Notes: generated by a model not told the origin, from the letters alone. DNA of 64,000 bases from an uncultured Verrucomicrobiae bacterium (GCA_963804345.1 CAWDPX010000015.1:119147-183146); one strand, 5' to 3'; shown: positions 7,601-49,117, counted from the stretch's first letter. Numbers and translations: made by a program.

Positions 7601-8145
7601 ATATGGAACGATTCCTGAAAACGGTCGGCCATTTCGCGCTGCCACTGGAAGGCAAGGTTCGCCGGGCAGATAATGAGTACGCGCTCGACCAGCCCGCGCA
7701 ATTTGAGTTCCTTGAGCAGCAGCCCGGCCATGATGGTCTTGCCCGCGCCCGCGTCATCGGCGAGGAGAAACCGGCAACGAGCAGATTTCAACAGGTGGTT
7801 GTAAACAGCGTCGAGTTGGTGCGGCAACGGGTCAACCCGCGAAATGGACAAACCAAAAAACGGATCATATTCCTGTGCCAGCGAAATGCGGAGGGCTTCG
7901 AGACCGAGCTTGACGAGTTTTGGCTTTGCCGCGAATTGTTTTTCCGGTCGCTCAATCTCGATGGATTGGAGATCGGTCTTGGTCAGCGTGACGCCGCCTC
8001 GGAAAGTCTTCGAGCGTGTGCCGACAAGGTTCACCAATACGAAACCATCGCCCACGGTGGGATTGCCAATGATCCGCATCGGCTCGCTGAACTGCGAACC
8101 GTTCAACACGACGCCATCAACGAAGTCATTGGCGGAAATGCTCAT
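4693..8145 (-). CDS. SNF2-family helicase with C-terminal DUF3883 (restriction-endonuclease-like) domain
   Basis: 1150-aa intact ORF. LPHQLDAVYN, motif I LLADDAGAGKTIMAG, motif II VIVDEAHRM, LLLTATPHKG, helicase-C GEGINLQCCHVLFNYDIPWNPNRLEQRMGRIHRYGQ. The C-terminal part ..NLGFDLRSL..LRLIEVKG..IFLSPNEKRIA..YWLYIVTHC is typical of DUF3883. Confidence 0.85.
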   Translation of the reverse strand: MSISANDFVDGVVLNGSQFSEPMRIIGNPTVGDGFVLVNLVGTRSKTFRGGVTLTKTDLQSIEIERPEKQFAAKPKLVKLGLEALRISLAQEYDPFFGLSISRVDPLPHQLDAVYNHLLKSARCRFLLADDAGAGKTIMAGLLLKELKLRGLVERVLIICPANLAFQWQREMADRFQESFHILRGADLRVQYGVNMWNEKPQLITSMDLAKREEILPSVRQAEDWDLVIVDEAHRMSARDSEHKSERYRLGELLREKTSHFLLLTATPHKGDPVNFSLFLQLLDQEAYADVKSIHDAMERREAACYLRRTKEVMLNFPKPQTDGTWKAEKLFTKRIPQTVAFNLEGDEMELYKAVTHYVQRQSARAAEAGDERRARAVGFIMAMYQRRMASSTYSLKQSLMRRQKALKELLETANQLGEIPMPDVPSEDEWEEMDDAEREMKERELERATLARRKPDLEQELKEIAELITQAQRVEDGGHEIKLRTLKEQLTERGIFADKELRLLLFTEYKDTLDYLVAKLKSWGLTVGQIHGSMKPGRRDEEGTRLWAERNFWDLKTQVLVATEAAGEGINLQCCHVLFNYDIPWNPNRLEQRMGRIHRYGQTKDCLIFNFFAQNTVEGRVLHKLMEKLQLIRDALDDDAVFNVVGEVLPSNQIERFLRDFYSGKMSADDIEARLEVEVREEDFRKICQSALEGLAKKSLNLPMLVERRAMAQERRIVPETVARFFEIGAGEVGLPLTPIKNIQRAFTVGKVPTRLYDQCRAKDWRLPALARSYDRICFERSTLEADARLEWVTPGHALFEAVRRQVWEHTQPQLRQGAVFYELEREQPALLELFIAGVTDGVGNVLHRRLFLVETNSDGTRRLRDPAYLLDLIAPEKPPQLLPNVTSDDTRTQTFLFEKALQPFLTEIAGEREHELNLIERSVRTCFEELIAKRDAVLAKHLLAQDKGDPTATGLAELEAQKVQDLQRRRDLRLGDLARQRSLSLQGVERIGVALVLPHPERNVPAHTNLKTDRETERKAIAAVIAYEQARGCKIEDVQDQNLGFDLRSLHRVSGELRLIEVKGIGAATGTIFLSPNEKRIAGDRRDLYWLYIVTHCDTTPKLEDPIKDPARFPWHEVKKVEHYRLDVNAMTQPVVLKEDAPPYGGGK

Positions 8146-8208
8146 TTGTCACAAACGGAGAAACTTGTTCGTTGAGCGTGCGTATTCTGATTTTTTCCCA
8201 TACCCATG

Positions 8209-8235
8209 CCGCGTAAAAGGCGTTGCCTCACGCGG
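8209..8235. repeat. REP-like hairpin repeat (CCGCGTAAAAGGCGTTGCCTCACGCGG)
   Basis: Self-complementary ends CCGCGT/ACGCGG. An inverted copy lies at 8705-8731 (24/27 identical) and a partial copy near 63283-63300. Confidence 0.6.
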
Positions 8236-8498: not shown

Positions 8499-8704
8499 GT
8501 ATTTCCGGCAGGTATCGGCTTCCGTTGACATTCGTGTTCTGATCCCCACGTAAACTCCGATAAATCGCGAGCACGTGGCAGACCATTTCGATCCCCAGCC
8601 CAAGCGGATTCGTCCCCATCGTAGGACGAAAACGGGGTTTGGCAATTGGGAAATCTTTCACAGAAGAAAACGAAGGAAACAAAGCATGGAAACTTCGTTC
8701 ACTG

Positions 8705-41270: not shown

Positions 41271-43844
41271 TTACTCCCGCACCGTTGCCTTCAACTGCGC
41301 TTTGAACGCTTCCACGATTTTCGTGTGCGCGGCGTTGGCTTCGGCGTCGGTCAGCGTTTTGTCCGCGGCGCGATAGGTGAAGGCGTAGGCCAGGCTTTTT
41401 TGGCCCTCGGGAACGTTTTTGCCGCGGAACACGTCGAACAATTCCACCGCTTCCAGGTTCGCCGGTTTGGTCTGCTTCACCACCTGCAAAACGGCGTCGT
41501 GCGTCGTGGCTTCGGGCACAATCATCGCCACGTCCCGGCGGATGGCGGGAAACGCGGGCAATGGCTTGAATGACTTGGCCGGATTCCGCCGCGCCAGCAG
41601 CAAATCCAGATTCAATTCCGCCAGCAGCACGGCGTCGCGCAAATCATATTTCTTCGCCAGCGCGGGCAGCAATTGACCGAACTCGCCAACTTGATTTTTG
41701 CCCTGCAAAATGACGGCCGATTCGAGAAAGAGCGCGGTGCTTTCCGCCTGGCGCGCAAACGTCATTCCGCGCAAACCGAATTGCTCGAAAAATTCCTCCA
41801 ACACACCTTTCAAATCGCAGGCGTCAAATTTCGCGTCGCGTTCGCTGCCGCTCCAGAAGGGCAGGGCACGCTGGCCGGTGAGCGCGAGAGCTAGGCGGGG
41901 TTTTTCAAGGAAGAGGTGTGAGTCGGCATTTGGTCCTTCCTTTGTGCCGAACACCTGCCCGATTTCAAACAGCGCCACGTCGTAATTCTTCCGGCTCAAG
42001 TTATGTCGCAACGAATGAATCAATCCCGGCAACAAACTGGGACGCAGCACGTCCATGTCCGAACTCAACGGATTTGCCAGTGTAACCAATTCGGCATTCG
42101 GCATTCGGCATTCGGCATTCGCTATTAGCGTCTGCCCTTGCGCTTCGTTCAGGCCCAGCCCGCTCAAAATCCGGCGCGCTTCTGCCAGGACGTCGTGTGT
42201 CGCGTCGAATGCGTTCGTGCCTAGCGCGCCGCGCGGCGGAGTGGACGGAATTTTGTCCACGCCATGCAGCCGGGCGATTTCTTCGATCAAATCCACTTCA
42301 CGTTTCAAGTCCACGCGGAACGTGGGAATCCGAAACGTGACCGGTTCCGGCGCGGCGTTGGCGCCAACTGGCCGCGCCTTGTGACCGGCGGTTTTCAAAC
42401 CAAGCTGGCCGAGATAAAACTCAATTTCTTCAGGCCGAAGCTCAATGCCGAGCAGTTCGTTCACCTTGTGATGCCGCAGCGTGATTTGCTTCGGCTCGAC
42501 CGGTTTCGGGTAGGCGTCCACGACGCCTTCGGCGAGTTGGCCGCCGGCGGTTTCGAGAATCAATTGCGCGCACCGCGCGCCGGCCCAGTCGTTGATGTCA
42601 ATGTCCGCGCCGCGCTCGAAACGATAGCTGGCGTCGGTGCGCAGTCCCAGCGTCTTGCTCGTGCGGCGGATGTTCGTGGGCGAGAAATAGGCGCTCTCGA
42701 TGAGCACGTCCACGGTGTTGTCCTTGATCTCGGAATTCTGCCCGCCCATGACGCCGGCCAGCGCGATGCCTTTTTGTTCATCGGCGATGAGCAGATTGTC
42801 CGAAGTGAGCTTGTGTTTCTGGCCGTCGAGCGTGATGAACTCCTCGCCGGCCTTCGCGCGGCGGACGACGATGGTTGGCTTGCAGCCGCCGTCGTCAGAC
42901 GGCGCATTCTTTCCATCCGAAGTTTGCGCCGACTCACGTCGGCGGCTACGGGAAATAAGGTGATAATCAAACGCGTGCAGCGGCTGGCCGATTTCGAGCA
43001 TCACGTAATTCGTCACGTCCACGACGTTGTTGATGCTGCGGACGCCGACTTTTTCCAGGGTGGTTCGGAGCCAGTCCGGGCTGGGGCCAATCTTCACGCC
43101 TTTCACGACACGAGCGGTGTAACGCGGGCAAAGGTCTGGGTCATCGAGGCGGACGCTGACCAAATCCGCCGTTTTTTCGGAGGGGCGAGTTCCACGAGTC
43201 CCTAAATTTGCTTCGGAATCAGGGCGTCGCGGAGCTCCACCCTCCGAAACGTTTGGCACCTTCAACGCATTTCCCGTCACTGCCGCGATCTCGCGGGCGA
43301 TGCCGATGACGCTGTTCCAGTCCGACCGGTTGGGCGTGATTTCGAGATCGAACACCACGTCGCCGCCGGTGCGGCCGAGATATTCGGCGAACGGCTGGCC
43401 GATCTTGGCGTCCGCCGGCAGAATGAGCAGGCCGTCCACCTTGTCCGGCAGGCCGAGTTCCTGCGGCGAGCACATCATGCCGTGGCTGGTGATGCCGAAG
43501 ACTTTTCGTTCCTTGATGACGAACGGTTCCGTGTCGCCGGGCTTCAGCGGCAGGGCGAAGTTCGGCAGGATGAGCGGCACCTTGTCGCCGGGTTTGTGGT
43601 TTTGCGCGCCGCAAATGATGACGCGCTCGCCCTTGCCGTCGTTGACCTTGCAGACGGAGAGCTTGTCCGAGCCGGGCACGGGGTCGCGCGTAAGGATTTG
43701 GGCGACGACGATGCCGTCGAACTCGCCGCCGGTTTTATGGACGCCCTCGACTTCGAGGCCGAGCATGGTGAGCCGCTCCGCCAGTTGTTCGGGCGACCAG
43801 TCGAAATCAACGTATTGTTTGAGCCAGTTAAGGGTGAGTTTCAT
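41271..43844 (-). CDS. pheT: Phenylalanine--tRNA ligase beta subunit, with several short in-frame insertions
   Basis: MKLTLNWLKQYVDFDWSPEQLAERLTMLGLEVEG, tRNA-binding domain GSDKLSVCKVNDG, B3/4 and B5 regions, FDVFRGKNVPEGQKSLAY. Confidence 0.9.
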   Translation of the reverse strand: MKLTLNWLKQYVDFDWSPEQLAERLTMLGLEVEGVHKTGGEFDGIVVAQILTRDPVPGSDKLSVCKVNDGKGERVIICGAQNHKPGDKVPLILPNFALPLKPGDTEPFVIKERKVFGITSHGMMCSPQELGLPDKVDGLLILPADAKIGQPFAEYLGRTGGDVVFDLEITPNRSDWNSVIGIAREIAAVTGNALKVPNVSEGGAPRRPDSEANLGTRGTRPSEKTADLVSVRLDDPDLCPRYTARVVKGVKIGPSPDWLRTTLEKVGVRSINNVVDVTNYVMLEIGQPLHAFDYHLISRSRRRESAQTSDGKNAPSDDGGCKPTIVVRRAKAGEEFITLDGQKHKLTSDNLLIADEQKGIALAGVMGGQNSEIKDNTVDVLIESAYFSPTNIRRTSKTLGLRTDASYRFERGADIDINDWAGARCAQLILETAGGQLAEGVVDAYPKPVEPKQITLRHHKVNELLGIELRPEEIEFYLGQLGLKTAGHKARPVGANAAPEPVTFRIPTFRVDLKREVDLIEEIARLHGVDKIPSTPPRGALGTNAFDATHDVLAEARRILSGLGLNEAQGQTLIANAECRMPNAELVTLANPLSSDMDVLRPSLLPGLIHSLRHNLSRKNYDVALFEIGQVFGTKEGPNADSHLFLEKPRLALALTGQRALPFWSGSERDAKFDACDLKGVLEEFFEQFGLRGMTFARQAESTALFLESAVILQGKNQVGEFGQLLPALAKKYDLRDAVLLAELNLDLLLARRNPAKSFKPLPAFPAIRRDVAMIVPEATTHDAVLQVVKQTKPANLEAVELFDVFRGKNVPEGQKSLAYAFTYRAADKTLTDAEANAAHTKIVEAFKAQLKATVRE
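42090..42122. repeat. Tandem heptanucleotide repeat (TCGGCAT x4 plus a partial unit) inside pheT
   Basis: Direct reading. Translated on the minus strand as ANAECRMPNAEL. The same GAATGCC units recur at 61443-61460. Confidence 0.8.
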
Positions 43845-43848
43845 AGTA

Positions 43849-44310
43849 CTAGCTTGTGAGAATCTCGAATATTAACTCGCGCGGCTTGAGATTGAGGTGA
43901 CGAGCTAAATCTTTTAGCGATCTAATGTCCAACTCGCCGTTGCAGTAATTCACAGAAATGGCCTGACTGCCGACGATCAGTTTGAGGTGGTCCCCTTTTG
44001 ATGTTTCGAGTCTGAAGCCGCTCCTTCGAAAATAACGTTCGCATTTATGAATCTTTGGCCCTGGTAGTGCCTCTTTGATGTTTGCAGCAGTTTCTAGCGT
44101 GAGTGACTCGCTAGGAACAAGATCGTCGCGATAATCCAACGACACACCGTTACGAAGCACTCTTGTGTTAAACGGTGAGAAGCCGAACTCGGCAACTAGG
44201 TTTTCATCAAACAGCAAATCAACCACATTAAATCCTGGCTTGATGTAAAATGGCGACGTTTGTGTCCCCATCCTTACTATGACAGGCTTTGTGTAATCGA
44301 ATTGTTGCAT
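43849..44310 (-). CDS. Hypothetical protein with a HicA-like C-terminal domain
   Basis: The C-terminal ..FRRSGFRLETSKGDHLKLIVGSQAISVNYCNGELDIRSLKDLARHLNL aligns by eye to HicA (..GSNHLKLRFHGRRSVMPRHPCDEIKEPLRKAIIKQLGL). The N-terminal 85 aa are unassigned. The stop lies 4 nt before the pheT ATG. Confidence 0.45.
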   Translation of the reverse strand: MQQFDYTKPVIVRMGTQTSPFYIKPGFNVVDLLFDENLVAEFGFSPFNTRVLRNGVSLDYRDDLVPSESLTLETAANIKEALPGPKIHKCERYFRRSGFRLETSKGDHLKLIVGSQAISVNYCNGELDIRSLKDLARHLNLKPRELIFEILTS

Positions 44311-44329
44311 AAATCTTTTTTGCCTTAGG

Positions 44330-44386
44330 TTAAAACAGTTTCAAAAACCGCATGTCGTTCTCGTAAAAGAGGCAGATGTCGTTGAT
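44330..44386 (-). repeat. Relic copy A of the pheS 3' end including its stop codon
   Basis: The reverse strand reads ..INDICLFYENDMRFLKLF*, against the real pheS end ..INDIRLFYENDVRFLKQF* (45488-45544). 50/57 nt identical. Confidence 0.75.
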
Positions 44387-44618
44387 GCAGTCGCCAAGCT
44401 CCGTCAGGAGCGGCATCTTTGTAGCCAGCACGCCACCCACCACCCAAGCCCCGTCGGGGCGGCATATTCCAACAACCACAAATTTTTGACCGGCGTTGTT
44501 CATTCGTTGGCGATGTCGCTCCTGACGGAGCTTTTTTCATTTTATTTGTTTCGTTCTACAAATATTTCGCTCCTAACGGAGCTTCGATCAGGGCTCGACG
44601 GAGTCTCGCCCCACCCAA

Positions 44619-44653
44619 TTAAAACTGTTTCAAAAAACGCATGTCGTTTTCGG
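44619..44653 (-). repeat. Relic copy B of the pheS 3' end including its stop codon
   Basis: The reverse strand reads ENDMRFLKQF*. 30/35 nt are identical to 45488-45522. It lies 4 nt after the carbonic anhydrase stop and in the same frame. Confidence 0.7.
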
Positions 44654-44657
44654 AAAT

Positions 44658-45437
44658 CTATTTGTCGTAAAAATGAACCTCGCCGGTGGCGAGGTCGTAC
44701 ATGCCGCCGACCAAGCCGATCTGGCCGTTGTCAATCATCTCGCGCAGGATGGGGCTGCGTTCGCGGATTTGTTGCAGGACCAACTGCACGTTCATCTCGG
44801 ATACCTTGTCCACAAATTGCAGGTTCTTTGAATTGCGCGGCTGGCCGTCGGCGGGGACGTGTTCGATGGCCGGTTTGATTTTGGCGAGCAGGCCGGTGAG
44901 GTTGCCCAGTTCCACGCTGTCCACGGCGCCCTTGATGGCGCCGCAATTGGAATGGCCGATGACGGCAATCAATTTCGCGCCCGAAACCTTGCAGGCGAAT
45001 TCCAGGCTGCCGAGGATGTCGTCATTCAGCACGTTGCCGGCGACGCGCGCGCTGAAAATGTCGCCGATGCCCTGGTCTAAAACAATTTCGATGGGCTGGC
45101 GCGAATCCAGGCAGCTCAGGACCACGGCAAAGGGATACTGGCCGGAGGCGGTGGTTTTGACGTCCGCCGGCTGATTGCGAACCAGCGGGTGGCCGGCCAC
45201 AAACCGGGCATTGCCGGCGCGCAATTCGTCGAGCGCTTTTTGTGGCGTCATGGCCGCCTGCGATTCCTTGGTGGGCGGAGCCACCGCGGCACCAGTGGTG
45301 CAAGCCATACCCGACATCGGGCAAGTCTTTGCCGGCATCGAGCAGCAGGATTGTTTGGGAGAATGACAGCCTGCCGCGAGCAACACGGCGACGGCCAGAC
45401 CGGCAAACAGCGAGAGGCGATTCAATGGAGCTTTCAT
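44658..45437 (-). CDS. Beta-class carbonic anhydrase (lipoprotein)
   Basis: Lipobox LLAAGC. VLSCLDSRQPIEIV and VIGHSNCGAIKGA match the beta-CA Zn ligands (C-x-D-x-R, H-x-x-C). Confidence 0.85.
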   Translation of the reverse strand: MKAPLNRLSLFAGLAVAVLLAAGCHSPKQSCCSMPAKTCPMSGMACTTGAAVAPPTKESQAAMTPQKALDELRAGNARFVAGHPLVRNQPADVKTTASGQYPFAVVLSCLDSRQPIEIVLDQGIGDIFSARVAGNVLNDDILGSLEFACKVSGAKLIAVIGHSNCGAIKGAVDSVELGNLTGLLAKIKPAIEHVPADGQPRNSKNLQFVDKVSEMNVQLVLQQIRERSPILREMIDNGQIGLVGGMYDLATGEVHFYDK

Positions 45438-45487
45438 TTGTTTTCGATGTCGCTCCTAACGGAGCTTTAAGGTGCCAAATTGGAACC

Positions 45488-46546
45488 TTAAAATTGTTTC
45501 AAAAACCGCACGTCATTTTCGTAAAAGAGCCGGATGTCGTTGATGCCGTAACGGATCATGGCGATGCGCTCGATGCCGAAGCCGAACGCCCAGCCGGTCC
45601 AGATTTCGGGGTCGTAGCCGACGTTCTCGAACACCTGCGGATGCACCATGCCGCAGCCGGCGATTTCCAGCCAGTCCTTGCCCAGCTTCTTCACGAGCGC
45701 ATTGCTGAAATCAATCTCGAAGCTCGGCTCGGTGTAGCTGAAGTAGTGCGGACGGAAACGGATCTTCACATCCTTGCCCAGCAATTCCTTGAAAACGAAT
45801 TCGACCGTGCCCTTGAGGTCGCCCACGGTGACGCCCTTGTCCACGTAAAGCCCTTCGATCTGCTGGAAGGTTGGATTGTGCGTGGCGTCGGCGTTGTCGC
45901 GGCGATAAACGCGGCCGGGGACAATAATGCGCACGGGCGGCGGCTGCGATTTCATCACGCGGATTTGCACGGATGACGTATGCGTTCGGAGCAAAAGTGA
46001 TTGACGTCCGCCCTCGCCCCGGCCCTCTCCCCCGGGAGAGGGAGAATTATCCGCCGATCCACTTGCAAGGTAGAAAGTATCCTGGGTATCGCGTGCCGGA
46101 TGGTCGGCGGGGGTGTTGAGGGCGTCGAAACAATGATATTCGTCCTCGATCTCCGGGCCGTCGGCGACGGCGAAGCCGAGCTTGCGGAAGGCGCGGACGA
46201 TGTCCTCGGTGACCTGCGTGAGCGGATGAAGCTTGCCGAGCGCGCGGCGGCGTCCGGGCAGGGTGAAGTCGGTCGGCTCCTTGGGCAGGGCGGCCTTGAG
46301 TTCGAGTTCGGAGCGGCGTTCGGCGAGCGCGGCTTCGAGGGCGATTTTGGCGGCGTTGATGAGTTTGCCGGCGGCGGGCTTTTCCTCTTTCGAGAGCGTG
46401 CCGAGTTGTTTCATCAGCGCGGTGAACTTGCCGTTGGCGCCGAGCCAGGCGCCCTTGGTCTGTTCGAGCGCGGCGGGGTCGGGCGCCGCCTTGAGTTCGG
46501 CGAGCGCGGTTTGTTTCAATGGTTCAATTTCGTTTAGCAGAGACAT
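45488..46546 (-). CDS. pheS: Phenylalanine--tRNA ligase alpha subunit, with an in-frame repeat insertion
   Basis: HPLTQV, PADHPARDTQDTFY, LLRTHTSSVQIR, FRPHYFSYTEPS, GCGMVHPQVF, AFGFGIERIAMIRYGI. Confidence 0.9.
   Translation of the reverse strand: MSLLNEIEPLKQTALAELKAAPDPAALEQTKGAWLGANGKFTALMKQLGTLSKEEKPAAGKLINAAKIALEAALAERRSELELKAALPKEPTDFTLPGRRRALGKLHPLTQVTEDIVRAFRKLGFAVADGPEIEDEYHCFDALNTPADHPARDTQDTFYLASGSADNSPSPGGEGRGEGGRQSLLLRTHTSSVQIRVMKSQPPPVRIIVPGRVYRRDNADATHNPTFQQIEGLYVDKGVTVGDLKGTVEFVFKELLGKDVKIRFRPHYFSYTEPSFEIDFSNALVKKLGKDWLEIAGCGMVHPQVFENVGYDPEIWTGWAFGFGIERIAMIRYGINDIRLFYENDVRFLKQF
46005..46062. repeat. Single arm of the CCCTCGCCCCGGCCCTCTCCCCCGGGAGAGGGAGAA repeat family, in frame in pheS
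   Basis: Translated as ..NSPSPGGEGRGEGGRQ.. between the conserved DTFYL and LLRTHTS blocks. Confidence 0.7.
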
Positions 46547-46569
46547 TTAAGGGAGTGTTGAGCTTCGCG

Positions 46570-46661
46570 TTTCAAGTTTCAAGTTTTCAGTTTTCAGCCA
46601 AAGCAAAACGGGCGGACCATCGCTGGCCGCCCGCTGAAAACCTGAAACTGAAAACCTGAAA
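46570..46661 (-). terminator. Nested hairpin between rplT and pheS: GC-rich terminator-like stem-loop plus U-rich tract, enclosed by about 28-nt complementary simple-sequence arms
   Basis: The minus strand reads TTTCAGGTTTTCAGTTTCAGGTTTTCAGC-GGGCGGCCAGCGATGGTCCGCCC-GTTTTGCTTTG-GCTGAAAACTGAAAACTTGAAACTTGAAA. Confidence 0.5.
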
Positions 46662-46664
46662 CGG

Positions 46665-47048
46665 TTACGCCTTTGCCAGAGTGGCGGCGGGCTTGGCCTT
46701 TAGCGCGTTCTTGGCGATGGTCACCAGTTCGCCAAACGCGGCGGCATCGGTGGCGGCGAGGTCGGCGAGCACCTTGCGGTCGAGCGCGCACTTGGCGGCC
46801 TTGAGGCCTTCAATAAAGCGGCTGTAGGTGAGGCCGGCGGCCCGGGTGGCGGCGTTGATGCGCACCTGCCAGAGATAACGGAAGGTGCGTTTTTTGACGC
46901 GGCGGTCGCGGTAGGCGTATTGGCGGCCGTGGTCAACGGCGTCGGAGGCGTAGCGGTAAAGGTTGGAGCGGCGCGCACGGTAGCCTTTGGCGGCTGTGAC
47001 CATCCGTTTGCGGCGTTTGCGGGAGGCGGCGGCGTTGGTAACTCGCAT
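46665..47048 (-). CDS. rplT: 50S ribosomal protein L20
   Basis: MRVTNAAASRKRRKRMVTAAKGYRARRSNLYRYA..AYRDRRVKKRTFR.LW..RINAA. Confidence 0.95.
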   Translation of the reverse strand: MRVTNAAASRKRRKRMVTAAKGYRARRSNLYRYASDAVDHGRQYAYRDRRVKKRTFRYLWQVRINAATRAAGLTYSRFIEGLKAAKCALDRKVLADLAATDAAAFGELVTIAKNALKAKPAATLAKA

Positions 47049-47374: not shown

Positions 47375-49117
47375 GGGCGGCGGACAAAATTCTTCATCAG
47401 GCGGACAGGGAGAGAGTGTCATTGCGTTTGGCGTGTTGATTGAGCCGGTGTTTCCAGAACGGGTCCCAGCGCCGACTGCTGTGGATGCAACGCAACGCCA
47501 GCACGTTTTCTGCACCGGGCAGGGACCAGAACATGCCTGATTGTTTGCAGCGCGCGCCGATGACCGTCTTGCAGCCAGCCTCCACGACGCCCGAACCGAT
47601 AAAGTAACCTGCGGCGCGAAAGGAGCCATACTGCATGCGCTGGATATTGCGCTCAAAATAACCCAATTCCTCCCCCACGACTTGCGCTTGCGGTTGACCG
47701 AGGCAAGCTTGGCGGGTTTCTTTAATCAGCGACTCGACCTTGTCTTTGAGCAATCGCCTGGCCCAACGTCGCTGCCGGGTTTTGTGGTCCGGATGGTTTT
47801 TGCCCAGCAGGGCGTCGAGTACTCGGCCCGCGTGTTCCAGCGCATGATAAAAGTCCACGACCTGCACACAGCCTTTGAAGCAGTCTTTGCCCATGTTCTC
47901 CAAACCGGTGGCGCCGTCGATCAAGAGCACGGTTTTTCCTGCTGTGGCCAAGCCTCGGCGCAAGGCTTCCTGGCGCAGAATGGGGCCAAACTGGTCAATG
48001 GATTGGAAGCTGGAAACATAGGTGGTGGATTCATGGTCCCGCACGGGATGGCCTTTTTCATCCGTCCGATGCTGCGTAAAAACACAGCCCAGATAAACCT
48101 GGCGGGTCTTGGCCGTGCCGTCGGGTTGTTTGCCCGCCCTTCCGGCCAACTCCTTGGGGCGCATGGGCACACCGGTGCCATCGGCGCTGACATACATAAT
48201 GGGCGCGTCGCACCGGCCGGGTTGGGCCTGGCGCTGCTGCCAAACTTGCGCGTCCTGGCCCACTCGTTGCACGACGCGCTGGATTTGCCGGGCCGACACC
48301 TGGATGGCACCGGTTTCGGCCAGATGCCGCTCCGCTTTTTGGTAGCCTGTCTCATCGGCGCCCTCCAAACAGATCAGCCGGGCCAAAGCGGGCGTGTAGC
48401 CAACCTCCAGACCCAGCGCCGCATCGGCTGGATAGTGCCCCTGTTTTTTGCCCTCATGGTAGTAGTAGTCGCGCTCCAGTTGGAAGGTGCCAAACAAACC
48501 GTCCACCCGCAGGCACTCCCGTCCTTTGCGCTGCTGGCCGGGTGCGGGCTGATAGGCGGCATCGACACGGTCGGCCGCTTGTTGGAGCAGCCATTGCACC
48601 AGCGCATTGGCGGGCTTGAAGATGGCGGTGCGCACCAGCACTTCCAACTGCTGCACCGCCAAGCCGTTGGGCGTTTGCCCGCCAAAGTGCGCCATCAACT
48701 GTTGGATTTCCTGCTCTTGGGCCAGGAGGAGTTGTGGCGTGGGGTCTTTTTTTTTGCGCCCGCCACTCGCTCGGCGCGGGTTTTTTCCACCATGAGTTGC
48801 ACGTATTGCGCCATCAGTTCCTGGACCTGACGGTAGCCATCGATGGCGGCCTTGAGGTCGGGCACCTGTTCCGGGGGCACGTAGCGGGAAACGTTGCGGC
48901 CATTTTCATAGCATTGGTGATTATAGTAGGGCCCTTGCGGCCCTTGGCGAAGCACACTGATGGTGCCGCGATCCAGACGCTGGATTTGGGCGATGTCGTT
49001 GAGGAGCGATTGCGGAGTGGATTTGGTATTCATGGCCGGAAGTATATGTGTATGCCATATACCAAGGCAATAAAAAAAAGGCTAAAAACTGATTTTGAAG
49101 AATTTTGTCCGCCGCCC
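47375..49117 (-). mobile_element. Complete ISKra4-family-like insertion sequence (1743 bp) with 22-bp perfect terminal inverted repeats and a 9-bp target-site duplication
   Basis: IRL GGGCGGCGGACAAAATTCTTCA (47375-47396) and IRR TGAAGAATTTTGTCCGCCGCCC (49096-49117). Direct repeat AATCAAGAG at 47366-47374 and 49118-49126. Confidence 0.85.
47397..49033 (-). CDS. IS transposase encoded as two overlapping ORFs (112 aa plus 433 aa) joined by a -1 frameshift at A_AAA_AAG
   Basis: OrfB ..YVSADGTGVPM.., ..LLIDGATGLEN.. and ..GSGVVEAGCKTVIGARCKQSGMFWSLPGAENVLALRC..RWD.FW match my recollection of ISKra4 transposases. The OrfA frame reads GCA AAA AAA AAG at 48757-48746; the -1 frame continues KKDPTPQLLLAQEQEIQQLMAHFGG. 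Confidence 0.75.

Follow-up and report, generated by a model that had tools for sequence, protein, structure and literature searches.

Insertion with long target duplication was reportedly described by Nobusato et al. in 2000 (Gene 259:99). At fda of Streptococcus thermophilus, the ICESt1/CIME elements are said to form tandem arrays that are parted by 3' ends of the target gene, and some members reportedly have no recombination genes. In the cases of long target duplication that have been analysed, restriction-modification genes are inserted with no other mobile elements, the repeats exceed 30 base pairs (bp), and the repeated sequence is found once at the empty site (PMC2853133). The repeats often span a start or stop codon, which leaves the target gene intact, and the targets are sometimes operon-like; the mechanism is unknown (Furuta, Abe and Kobayashi 2010, PMC2853133). 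In Neisseria, whole-gene cassettes between two conserved genes that differ between strains and are swapped via homology of the flanks are called minimal mobile elements (Saunders and Snyder 2002; Snyder et al. 2007, in the summary of PMC3082526); pheS/pheT of Neisseria meningitidis is one such site and carries a type II restriction-modification system. The present text concerns the same gene pair in a 64,000-nucleotide (nt) stretch of DNA from an uncultured Verrucomicrobiae bacterium (GCA_963804345.1 CAWDPX010000015.1:119147-183146), here called the window, where accessory genes lie between pheS and pheT together with two relic copies, A and B, of the pheS 3' end.

Separate insertions at a tightly coupled junction of essential genes have left the relics as their scars, and the pheS-pheT junction is a long-lived insertion hotspot. 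The duplicated tails behave as portable homology, without a linked recombinase. In the window the gap has the following parts, listed from pheS to pheT.

45488-46546, minus strand: pheS, phenylalanyl-tRNA synthetase alpha subunit, intact, 352 amino acids (aa); Pfam tRNA-synt_2d 1.6e-97, Phe_tRNA-synt_N 7e-20; 82-97% identity to 80 relatives
45488-45562, minus strand: functional tail of pheS, its final 75 nt with the stop codon, source of the relics (profile of 81 tails; alignment to copies A and B)
45465-45487, minus strand: 23-nt palindromic scrap GGTTCCAATTTGGCACCTTAAAG directly 3' of the pheS stop (inverted repeat I7)
45433-45468, minus strand: 36-nt piece of a gap-specific ~190-nt element, running over the start codon of the carbonic anhydrase (89% identity with 44499-44534 in repeat family D2; blastn)
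44658-45437, minus strand: beta-class carbonic anhydrase, 259 aa, with an N-terminal lipoprotein-like signal (Pfam Pro_CA 5e-38)
44619-44656, minus strand: relic B, 38 nt of pheS tail, ending in TAA
44585-44618, minus strand: ~35-nt spacer TTGGGTGGGGCGAGACTCCGTCGAGCCCTGATCG (comparison with the flanks of relatives' tails)
44392-44584, minus strand: ~190-nt element with a 28-29-nt inverted repeat at both ends (inverted repeats I1-I3), adjoining relic A at tail position -62
44330-44391, minus strand: relic A, 62 nt of pheS tail down to a TAA stop, truncated on the left by the ~190-nt element
43849-44310, minus strand: 153-aa open reading frame (ORF) of low guanine-plus-cytosine (GC) content (0.41-0.48), without a Pfam family (ORF call; AlphaFold model)
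41271-43844, minus strand: pheT, phenylalanyl-tRNA synthetase beta subunit, intact, its ATG 4 nt past the stop of the 153-aa ORF (ORF list; tblastn across loci; junction sequence)

Pairwise alignment and the sequence itself confirm the coordinates, identities and spacings given for the copies in the preliminary description of this locus. In minus-strand local alignments, relic A is identical to the functional tail in 54 of 62 columns (44330-44391; 50/57 over a 57-nt core), relic B in 33 of 38 (44619-44656; 30/35 over a 35-nt core), and A and B are identical to each other in 34 of 38. All three tails have a common orientation and each closes with a stop codon, TAA in A and B. Could the resemblance be fortuitous? 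An nhmmer profile built from the terminal 75 nt of pheS at 81 loci, run against ~1 Mb of sequence, retrieves A with E=8e-17 and B with E=6e-06, and the number of chance matches expected in the window for a 39-nt tail probe is 0; the likeness to the pheS tail is therefore not due to chance. Beyond the functional tail, A and B, no copy of the pheS tail was found in the 64-kb window. The 35-nt core of relic B begins 4 nt past the carbonic anhydrase stop and is in the carbonic anhydrase frame (..YDK, stop, ISENDMRFLKQF, stop), and 19 nt separate the end of relic A from the ATG of the 153-aa ORF.

Relatives were collected by a scan with one genome per species, which gave 80 pheS loci (82-97% PheS identity), all from Limisphaerales or Pedosphaera-like Verrucomicrobiota; with metagenome contigs the sample comes to ~175 loci, and ~13-16 kb was examined per relative. 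Among the 58 genome loci that hold both genes, the pheS-pheT distance varies from 6 to 4395 nt, with a median of 1554. Near-empty junctions, with a single tail and pheT 6-59 nt past the pheS stop, are present at five loci; at the empty sites L013, L054 and L059 there is one tail and pheT begins 6-12 nt past the stop. Extra tails, one to three per locus, are found in 22 of 81 genome loci, and arrays in relatives carry up to four relics. The count over genome loci and metagenome contigs is 79 relic tails vs 117 functional tails, and all 79 relics are in the pheS orientation and inside the pheS-pheT gap (~175 loci). The gap content differs even among the nearest relatives, as L001 (97% PheS identity) has a methyltransferase and L002 (94%) a restriction-modification pair. 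Variable gaps and displaced tails are thus seen clade-wide. The earlier proposal is upheld in that the relics bracket inserted genes and that insertion took place here more than once.

What has entered the gap? Two conserved flanking genes hold differing whole-gene cassettes from relative to relative, and the cassettes between relics are compact (~650-1000 nt). They include VapB (74 aa) with a PIN protein (125 aa), an AbrB/MazE-like protein (68 aa) with a PIN protein (128 aa), a DUF6036/AbiEii-like nucleotidyltransferase (178 aa) with a 72-aa partner, a PIN-like 160-aa protein with a 70-aa partner, and an ORF6N protein. Larger cargo in relatives comprises DNA methyltransferases with restriction enzymes, Mrr, PAP2, phosphodiesterases and carbonic anhydrase. 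One cassette can occupy differing array positions (L019, L029, L031 and L069), and the toxin-antitoxin cassettes bring their own TTGACA-type promoter-like sequences.

The ends of the relics are informative. The right end lies at the stop codon in 70 of the 79 relics. The stop codon and last bases of a tail, however, co-vary with the cassette downstream: VapB-PIN is always preceded by ..TTTTAG followed directly by GATTCC, and the 153-aa ORF by a ..AAACTGTTTTAA or ..CTGTTTTAA tail variant with the same spacer in the window and in L081-L084. Because of this co-variation, a relic is seen to be continuous with the sequence behind it; the right end at the stop codon is no recombination boundary, and the left end is the real junction. 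The TTGGGTGGGGCGAGACTCCGTCGAGCCCTGATCG spacer directly follows the stop of the pheS tail in 13 tails, the largest class of downstream flank. The most frequent position of the left end (tail positions are counted negative, back from the pheS end) is -78/-76; other left ends group near -91 and near -62, and the full spread is -119 to -35. Here the first bases of the tail co-vary with the upstream cassette, and the left junction is particular to each cassette family, lying against or across the stop codon of the final gene in the cassette.

Duplication is not limited to the pheS tail. Six loci carry a mirror image of it, in which a relic of the pheT 5' end, 57-90 nt long and starting exactly at the ATG, is followed by an insert and then by intact pheT (L015, L017, L031, L068, L095 and L154; in L068, for example, the relic is at 7635-7691 vs the real pheT at 8538). 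There is also a second anchor gene. In L168-L172 a 299-aa NTP_transferase is followed by VapB-PIN125 and then by a 123-nt relic of the NTP_transferase's own 3' end (e.g. L168 5443-7129), and in L111 (6972-8656) three NTP_transferase-tail relics separate VapB-PIN125 and AbrB-PIN128. The L111 contig does not have the upstream anchor gene; the intact NTP_transferase anchor was traced through homologues of the small ORFs. The cassette at the NTP_transferase locus keeps 13-16 nt of pheS tail end before GATTCC. At the empty NTP_transferase site (L173/L174, ~8000-8210) stop and start overlap (..CCATGAGC..). The pheT-head relics and the second anchor argue against an att site in the pheS tail. An element drawn to pheS is not what the architecture shows; which sequence is repeated depends on the anchor gene and not on the cassette.

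How might such arrays be formed? The reading that is preferred here, at a rough probability of 0.6, is that joins of an illegitimate or insertion-duplication type are followed by selection and by reshuffling through homologous recombination. Foreign or relocated DNA would join at a gene boundary, and in the process the coding sequence next to it, in this case the terminal ~60-90 nt of pheS, would be duplicated. The upstream copy would complete pheS, and the downstream copy would stay as a non-functional relic before the former neighbour sequence. An element-encoded recombinase would not be needed. Selection would leave only those events that spare both pheS and pheT, and the sharp end of the relics at the stop codon may reflect such selection together with ancestry. 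Later homologous recombination between duplicated ends, either within a genome or with DNA from relatives, could then add, delete and reshuffle cassettes. We infer both the molecular route of the primary duplication and the part of RecA-type recombination as the reshuffler.

Several observations weigh against this reading. The left ends are non-random, with 22 of 79 at -78/-76, and a junction of ..GAAAyC with GCCATG.. recurs in 8 or more unrelated families of cassettes. More scatter would be seen after purely illegitimate joining, and the clustering needs either a primary slot that is re-used or a preferred joining point. In three lineages new cargo begins directly past the relic B stop, and the 38 nt of that relic are a short arm for homologous recombination. 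A recent event with identical repeats was not caught among the sampled loci, so that the birth of a duplication was not seen in them. The stretches of ~13-16 kb per relative leave room for a trans-acting recombinase elsewhere. The described cases of long target duplication, moreover, concern restriction-modification genes, and their mechanism is itself unknown. The -78/-76 preference and the gain of a new gene's tail by a cassette are left unexplained by illegitimate joining with reshuffling, and they leave room for other processes.

Of these, site-specific integration is the one that the preliminary description favoured, with a single att-like site in the pheS tail. The pheS tail would be an attB, and small circular cassettes with an attP would be inserted serially by a tyrosine or serine recombinase that is coded elsewhere, much as integrase-less cis-mobilizable elements accrete beside integrative ones. 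Repeats that end at a stop codon are a classical mark of elements targeting gene 3' ends; the arrays of up to four relics, the same cassette at differing array positions, and left ends clustered at -78/-76 with a short common motif are also in keeping with it. Different parts of a tail change in step with the cassettes on its two sides, as they would after a crossover inside the tail. The search for the enzyme and its site, however, gave negative results. Among the 25 top Pfam families listed for 136 cargo ORFs, no integrase family was seen more than once, and single occurrences could hide below that level; Pfam analysis of 10 further cargo ORFs and of the window ORFs gave no transposase or integrase in the inserts. 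In tblastn searches no tyrosine recombinase was found in the window or the gaps, with approximate XerD and IntI1 queries that are sensitive only to fairly close tyrosine recombinases. An integrase was thus not found in ~175 gaps or in the 64-kb window with these limited queries. No constant att core, attC-like hairpin or dif-like site was found at the junctions, and a degenerate 44-nt tail pattern gave 0 matches to viral contigs. The spread of left ends from -119 to -35 and the mirror-image duplication of pheT heads also speak against a fixed site, and the same cassette with another gene's 123-nt tail at the second locus would require a second specificity. The proposal of a single att-like site with its own recombinase is therefore not sustained, and site-specific integration in general is unlikely.

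Equally doubtful is the possibility that the relics are kept because they are useful, an idea that would complement illegitimate joining with reshuffling and not replace it. The pheS end might carry an initiation or coupling context for the following gene; insertions would be tolerated solely where that context is rebuilt ahead of the displaced gene, and the relic would be retained as a short translated or structured leader. The anchor junctions are indeed very tight (6-12 nt for pheS-pheT; the NTP_transferase stop overlaps the next ATG). Many relics start at or near an in-frame ATG at -72, often overlapping or abutting the preceding cassette stop (ATGA). No promoter-like site or convincing terminator was found on the coding strand of the window gap, so that read-through from pheS is plausible. 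Of the 61 relics of at least 60 nt that were used in the decay analysis, 21 still encode the consensus peptide. The same set, however, encodes 32 different peptides, and it includes premature stops (n=3), internal deletions and truncations; non-synonymous changes and frameshifting deletions have also built up in the relics. Many occupied gaps are without a relic (59/81 genome loci), and the coupling partner of pheT in the window is the 153-aa ORF, not a relic.

A dedicated cassette-capture process, docking at the 3' ends of essential, translationally coupled genes and duplicating the end each time, is slightly less probable again than these two. If true, it would explain both the -78/-76 junction with its short motif and the presence of a new host-gene tail on the same toxin-antitoxin cassette, and it would be a functional analogue of the integron without attC or a linked integrase.

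Chromosomal integrons and the pdif modules of Acinetobacter carry small co-oriented cassettes that are rich in toxin-antitoxin pairs. Could the pheS tail act in a similar way, as an attC or pdif site for IntI or for the host XerCD? The cassettes here are likewise small, co-oriented and mostly toxin-antitoxin pairs, and a palindrome stands behind the window pheS stop. The tail, however, has no hairpin potential: in attC-like folding of both strands and two variants it reaches -5.8 to -6.8 kcal/mol, no better than shuffled sequences (z +0.3 to +1.0). A dif- or att-like role was rejected for the palindrome, which comes from within ORF6N coding sequence and is found at few boundaries (only ~11 places). 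There is no IntI beside the arrays, and the sole IntI-like match is a truncated N-terminal fragment ~3 kb upstream of pheS (L135 15-449, L133 4-141), 61% identical to IntI1 residues 15-60. This fragment is a pseudogene-like remnant of one distant lineage, unlinked to arrays elsewhere. The toxin-antitoxin cassettes also have promoter-like sequences of their own, and the repeat belongs to the anchor gene, not to the cassette. With hairpin and recombinase both missing, a system of this kind is largely refuted and very improbable. Least credible of all, and already refuted, is a dispersed repeat, an assembly artefact or a larger local tandem duplication of pheS, for although short repeats are plentiful in these genomes and metagenome assemblies can mis-join, the 79 relics match the pheS 3' end only, never beyond ~120 nt, they lie in this gap alone across 170+ independent assemblies (including contigs of 0.1-1.5 Mb), and their junctions are conserved between independent assemblies, so that the relics are true pheS 3' ends, as had been proposed.

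The history of the window array can be followed in part. In the preliminary description the carbonic anhydrase was the newest arrival and had brought its own tail, a view that is now given up. The gene belongs to the beta class (Pro_CA match of 131 bits vs a curated cut-off of 25.7), has a host-like GC content of ~0.60, and occupies the pheS-pheT gap of 18 loci, where pairwise identities of the carbonic anhydrase and of PheS rise and fall together (Spearman 0.51, p=2e-10). With this number of loci, the host-like composition and the tracking of PheS identity, the carbonic anhydrase has long been resident in the gap. A longer relic (~60-62 nt) is present behind the same carbonic anhydrase stop in L005 and L011, as seen in the junction alignment, and the 30-nt internal deletion of relic B is common to the window, L003 and L098. 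By these alignments, relic B is a shortened form, less 30 nt, of a ~62-nt relic that goes with the 3' end of the carbonic anhydrase. Behind the identical junction of carbonic anhydrase and relic B there is a nested series: L098 has VapB-PIN125, a tail, the PIN160 pair and another tail, L003 has the PIN160 pair and a tail, and the window has none of these cassettes. Such a series is the expected product of recombination between direct tail repeats.

Relic A can be traced as well. The junction of the ~190-nt element with a tail starting at -62 is present in at least seven relatives (L001, which is the nearest, L021, L023, L031, L069, L094 and L138), and in decayed form in L003 and L060. This unit is ancient, older than the carbonic anhydrase unit. 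The right (3') part of relic A travels with the 153-aa ORF. With the carbonic anhydrase old, relic A older and the 153-aa ORF foreign-looking, the order of the window array does not simply follow time of arrival, and the carbonic anhydrase is not its newest member. Three substitutions shared by A and B, which had been read as fitting a newest insertion with a more divergent tail of its own, have little weight: two of them are the clade consensus, and the counterparts of B and A in relatives lack the third (GTG to ATG, at a CpG), which represents either a parallel change or local gene conversion.

A further event has probably left its trace directly behind pheS. A 27-nt sequence that includes the post-pheS palindrome is also found inside the ORF6N coding sequence of L021 (~8097) and L094 (~1120), as the internal segment ..SLRFQFGTLKRGQ.., and it stands directly behind tails in L005, L088 and L098. 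The comparison suggests that in the window lineage a former ORF6N cassette was likely deleted almost whole, with the palindromic scrap left behind.

The possibility that the arrays are mostly recent imports was considered and dropped, as the cassette genes are usually more diverged than pheS in the same genome pairs (298 of 349 pairs for PIN125). PIN125 identity correlates with pheS identity (r=0.68). A relic differs from the functional tail of its own genome at 6.9 positions per 60 nt, close to the 8.0 per 60 nt seen between functional tails of separate genomes. The arrays are long-lived.

The 153-aa ORF is a puzzling member of the array. It has no Pfam match at E<=0.1, and only 8 homologues were found among 5.8 billion proteins; every one for which there is context lies directly behind a pheS tail. 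With its low GC content it looks more foreign than the carbonic anhydrase, though it is at the far end of the array. The AlphaFold model of the protein has a predicted local distance difference test (pLDDT) score of 85. The N-terminal half is predicted to be a ubiquitin-like beta-grasp (Foldseek ubiquitin-like matches with a root-mean-square deviation of ~2 A over 74-77 residues), and the C-terminal half is predicted to be alpha-beta-beta-beta-alpha. The evidence on the name 'HicA-like' given to it earlier is mixed: the topology fits, and there are weak HicA matches over residues 87-142 in a profile comparison with PDB sequences (9svk_A, E=0.14; 1whz_A, E=1.6). Against it are the want of a Pfam hit and the motif GDH (an invariant KGDH among homologues) in place of the conserved GSH of HicA. 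The designation is plausible but unproven. In the model, the protein is predicted to be a fusion of a ubiquitin-like beta-grasp with a HicA/double-stranded-RNA-binding-domain-like unit.

What is the ~190-nt element? It contains three small GC hairpins in all, with the inner hairpins GCTCC-GTYA-GGAGC and GCCCC-GAC-GGGGC, and there are 13 full and ~20 partial copies. All are in pheS-pheT gaps and all are in the pheS orientation (the plus strand of the oriented loci), a constancy that miniature transposons do not usually show. Of the 44 pairs in the consensus fold, 4 have compensatory changes, and the fold consists of a long conserved stem and an inner stem. No Rfam match at E<=1 was found in 43700-46700, which includes the element. 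It may be either the relic of a miniature inverted-repeat element or a structured RNA.

At ~46010-46050, pheS has an in-frame low-complexity insertion, ..SPSPGGEGRGEGG.., coded by a GGGGAGAGGGCCGGGGCGAGGG-type repeat, and pheT (41271-43844) has the in-frame low-complexity insertions ..EGGAPRRPDSEANLGTRGTRPS.., ..SRSRRRESAQTSDGKNAPSDDGGCK.. and ..ECRMPNAE... These look like short repeat elements that are tolerated inside coding sequence. Directly upstream of the rpmI-rplT-pheS cluster are a 433-aa UPF0236-family (ISKra4-like) transposase-like ORF (47397-48698, minus strand) and a DUF6788 ORF (48695-49033, minus strand). No sign that either ORF acts on the pheS-pheT gap was found.

The scars constitute a readable record of accessory genes entering between co-translated essential genes, where the duplicated end keeps the neighbours whole. 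Repeated events, together with recombination between the duplicated ends, can build integron-like arrays without an integrase. There is also a warning for annotation. Public data list relic gene ends as 'hypothetical proteins' of 40-70 aa (23 clusters for the NTP_transferase relics), and such calls could mark insertion hotspots.

How does the locus compare with known systems? Accretion of the ICESt1/CIME type needs a resident integrase and a fixed att core, whereas here neither was found, the repeat ends vary and the pheT 5' end is duplicated as well. Integron arrays and integrase-less attC clusters resemble the present arrays in their compact, co-oriented, toxin-antitoxin-rich cassettes with a ~60-120-nt repeat between them. 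The repeat here, however, is a piece of a host gene without a hairpin, the cassettes bear promoter-like sequences, rpmI-rplT-pheS lies upstream, and no IntI match was found in the window. With minimal mobile elements the locus shares varied whole-gene cassettes between a conserved pheS and pheT. By definition, those elements have no flanking duplications and they replace one another, whereas the duplicated ends at the present locus permit additive stacking and mark successive events.

Insertion with long target duplication is the best fit. Repeats of more than 30 bp flank the inserts (38 nt at the window carbonic anhydrase, 60-62 nt in L005/L011, 60-97 nt in relatives, and 123 nt at the NTP_transferase), the repeat is single at empty sites (L013, L054, L059; L173, L174), no mobility gene was found in the inserts by Pfam or tblastn, and some relatives have restriction-modification cargo. 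All the features of that class are present with the exception of cargo type, since the window carries a carbonic anhydrase and an orphan 153-aa ORF and the relatives mainly toxin-antitoxin pairs. The described cases involve restriction-modification genes, for the most part as single events, in Proteobacteria, Campylobacterota and a small number of other groups; at the present junction up to four relics are stacked in one array, duplication affects the ends of both neighbouring genes, and the hosts are Verrucomicrobiota (Limisphaerales). The locus thereby extends insertion with long target duplication to toxin-antitoxin pairs, metabolic genes and Verrucomicrobiota. The cargo type, the stacked arrays, the use of both gene ends and the same cassettes at two anchors set it apart, and so does the phylum, which is new to the class.

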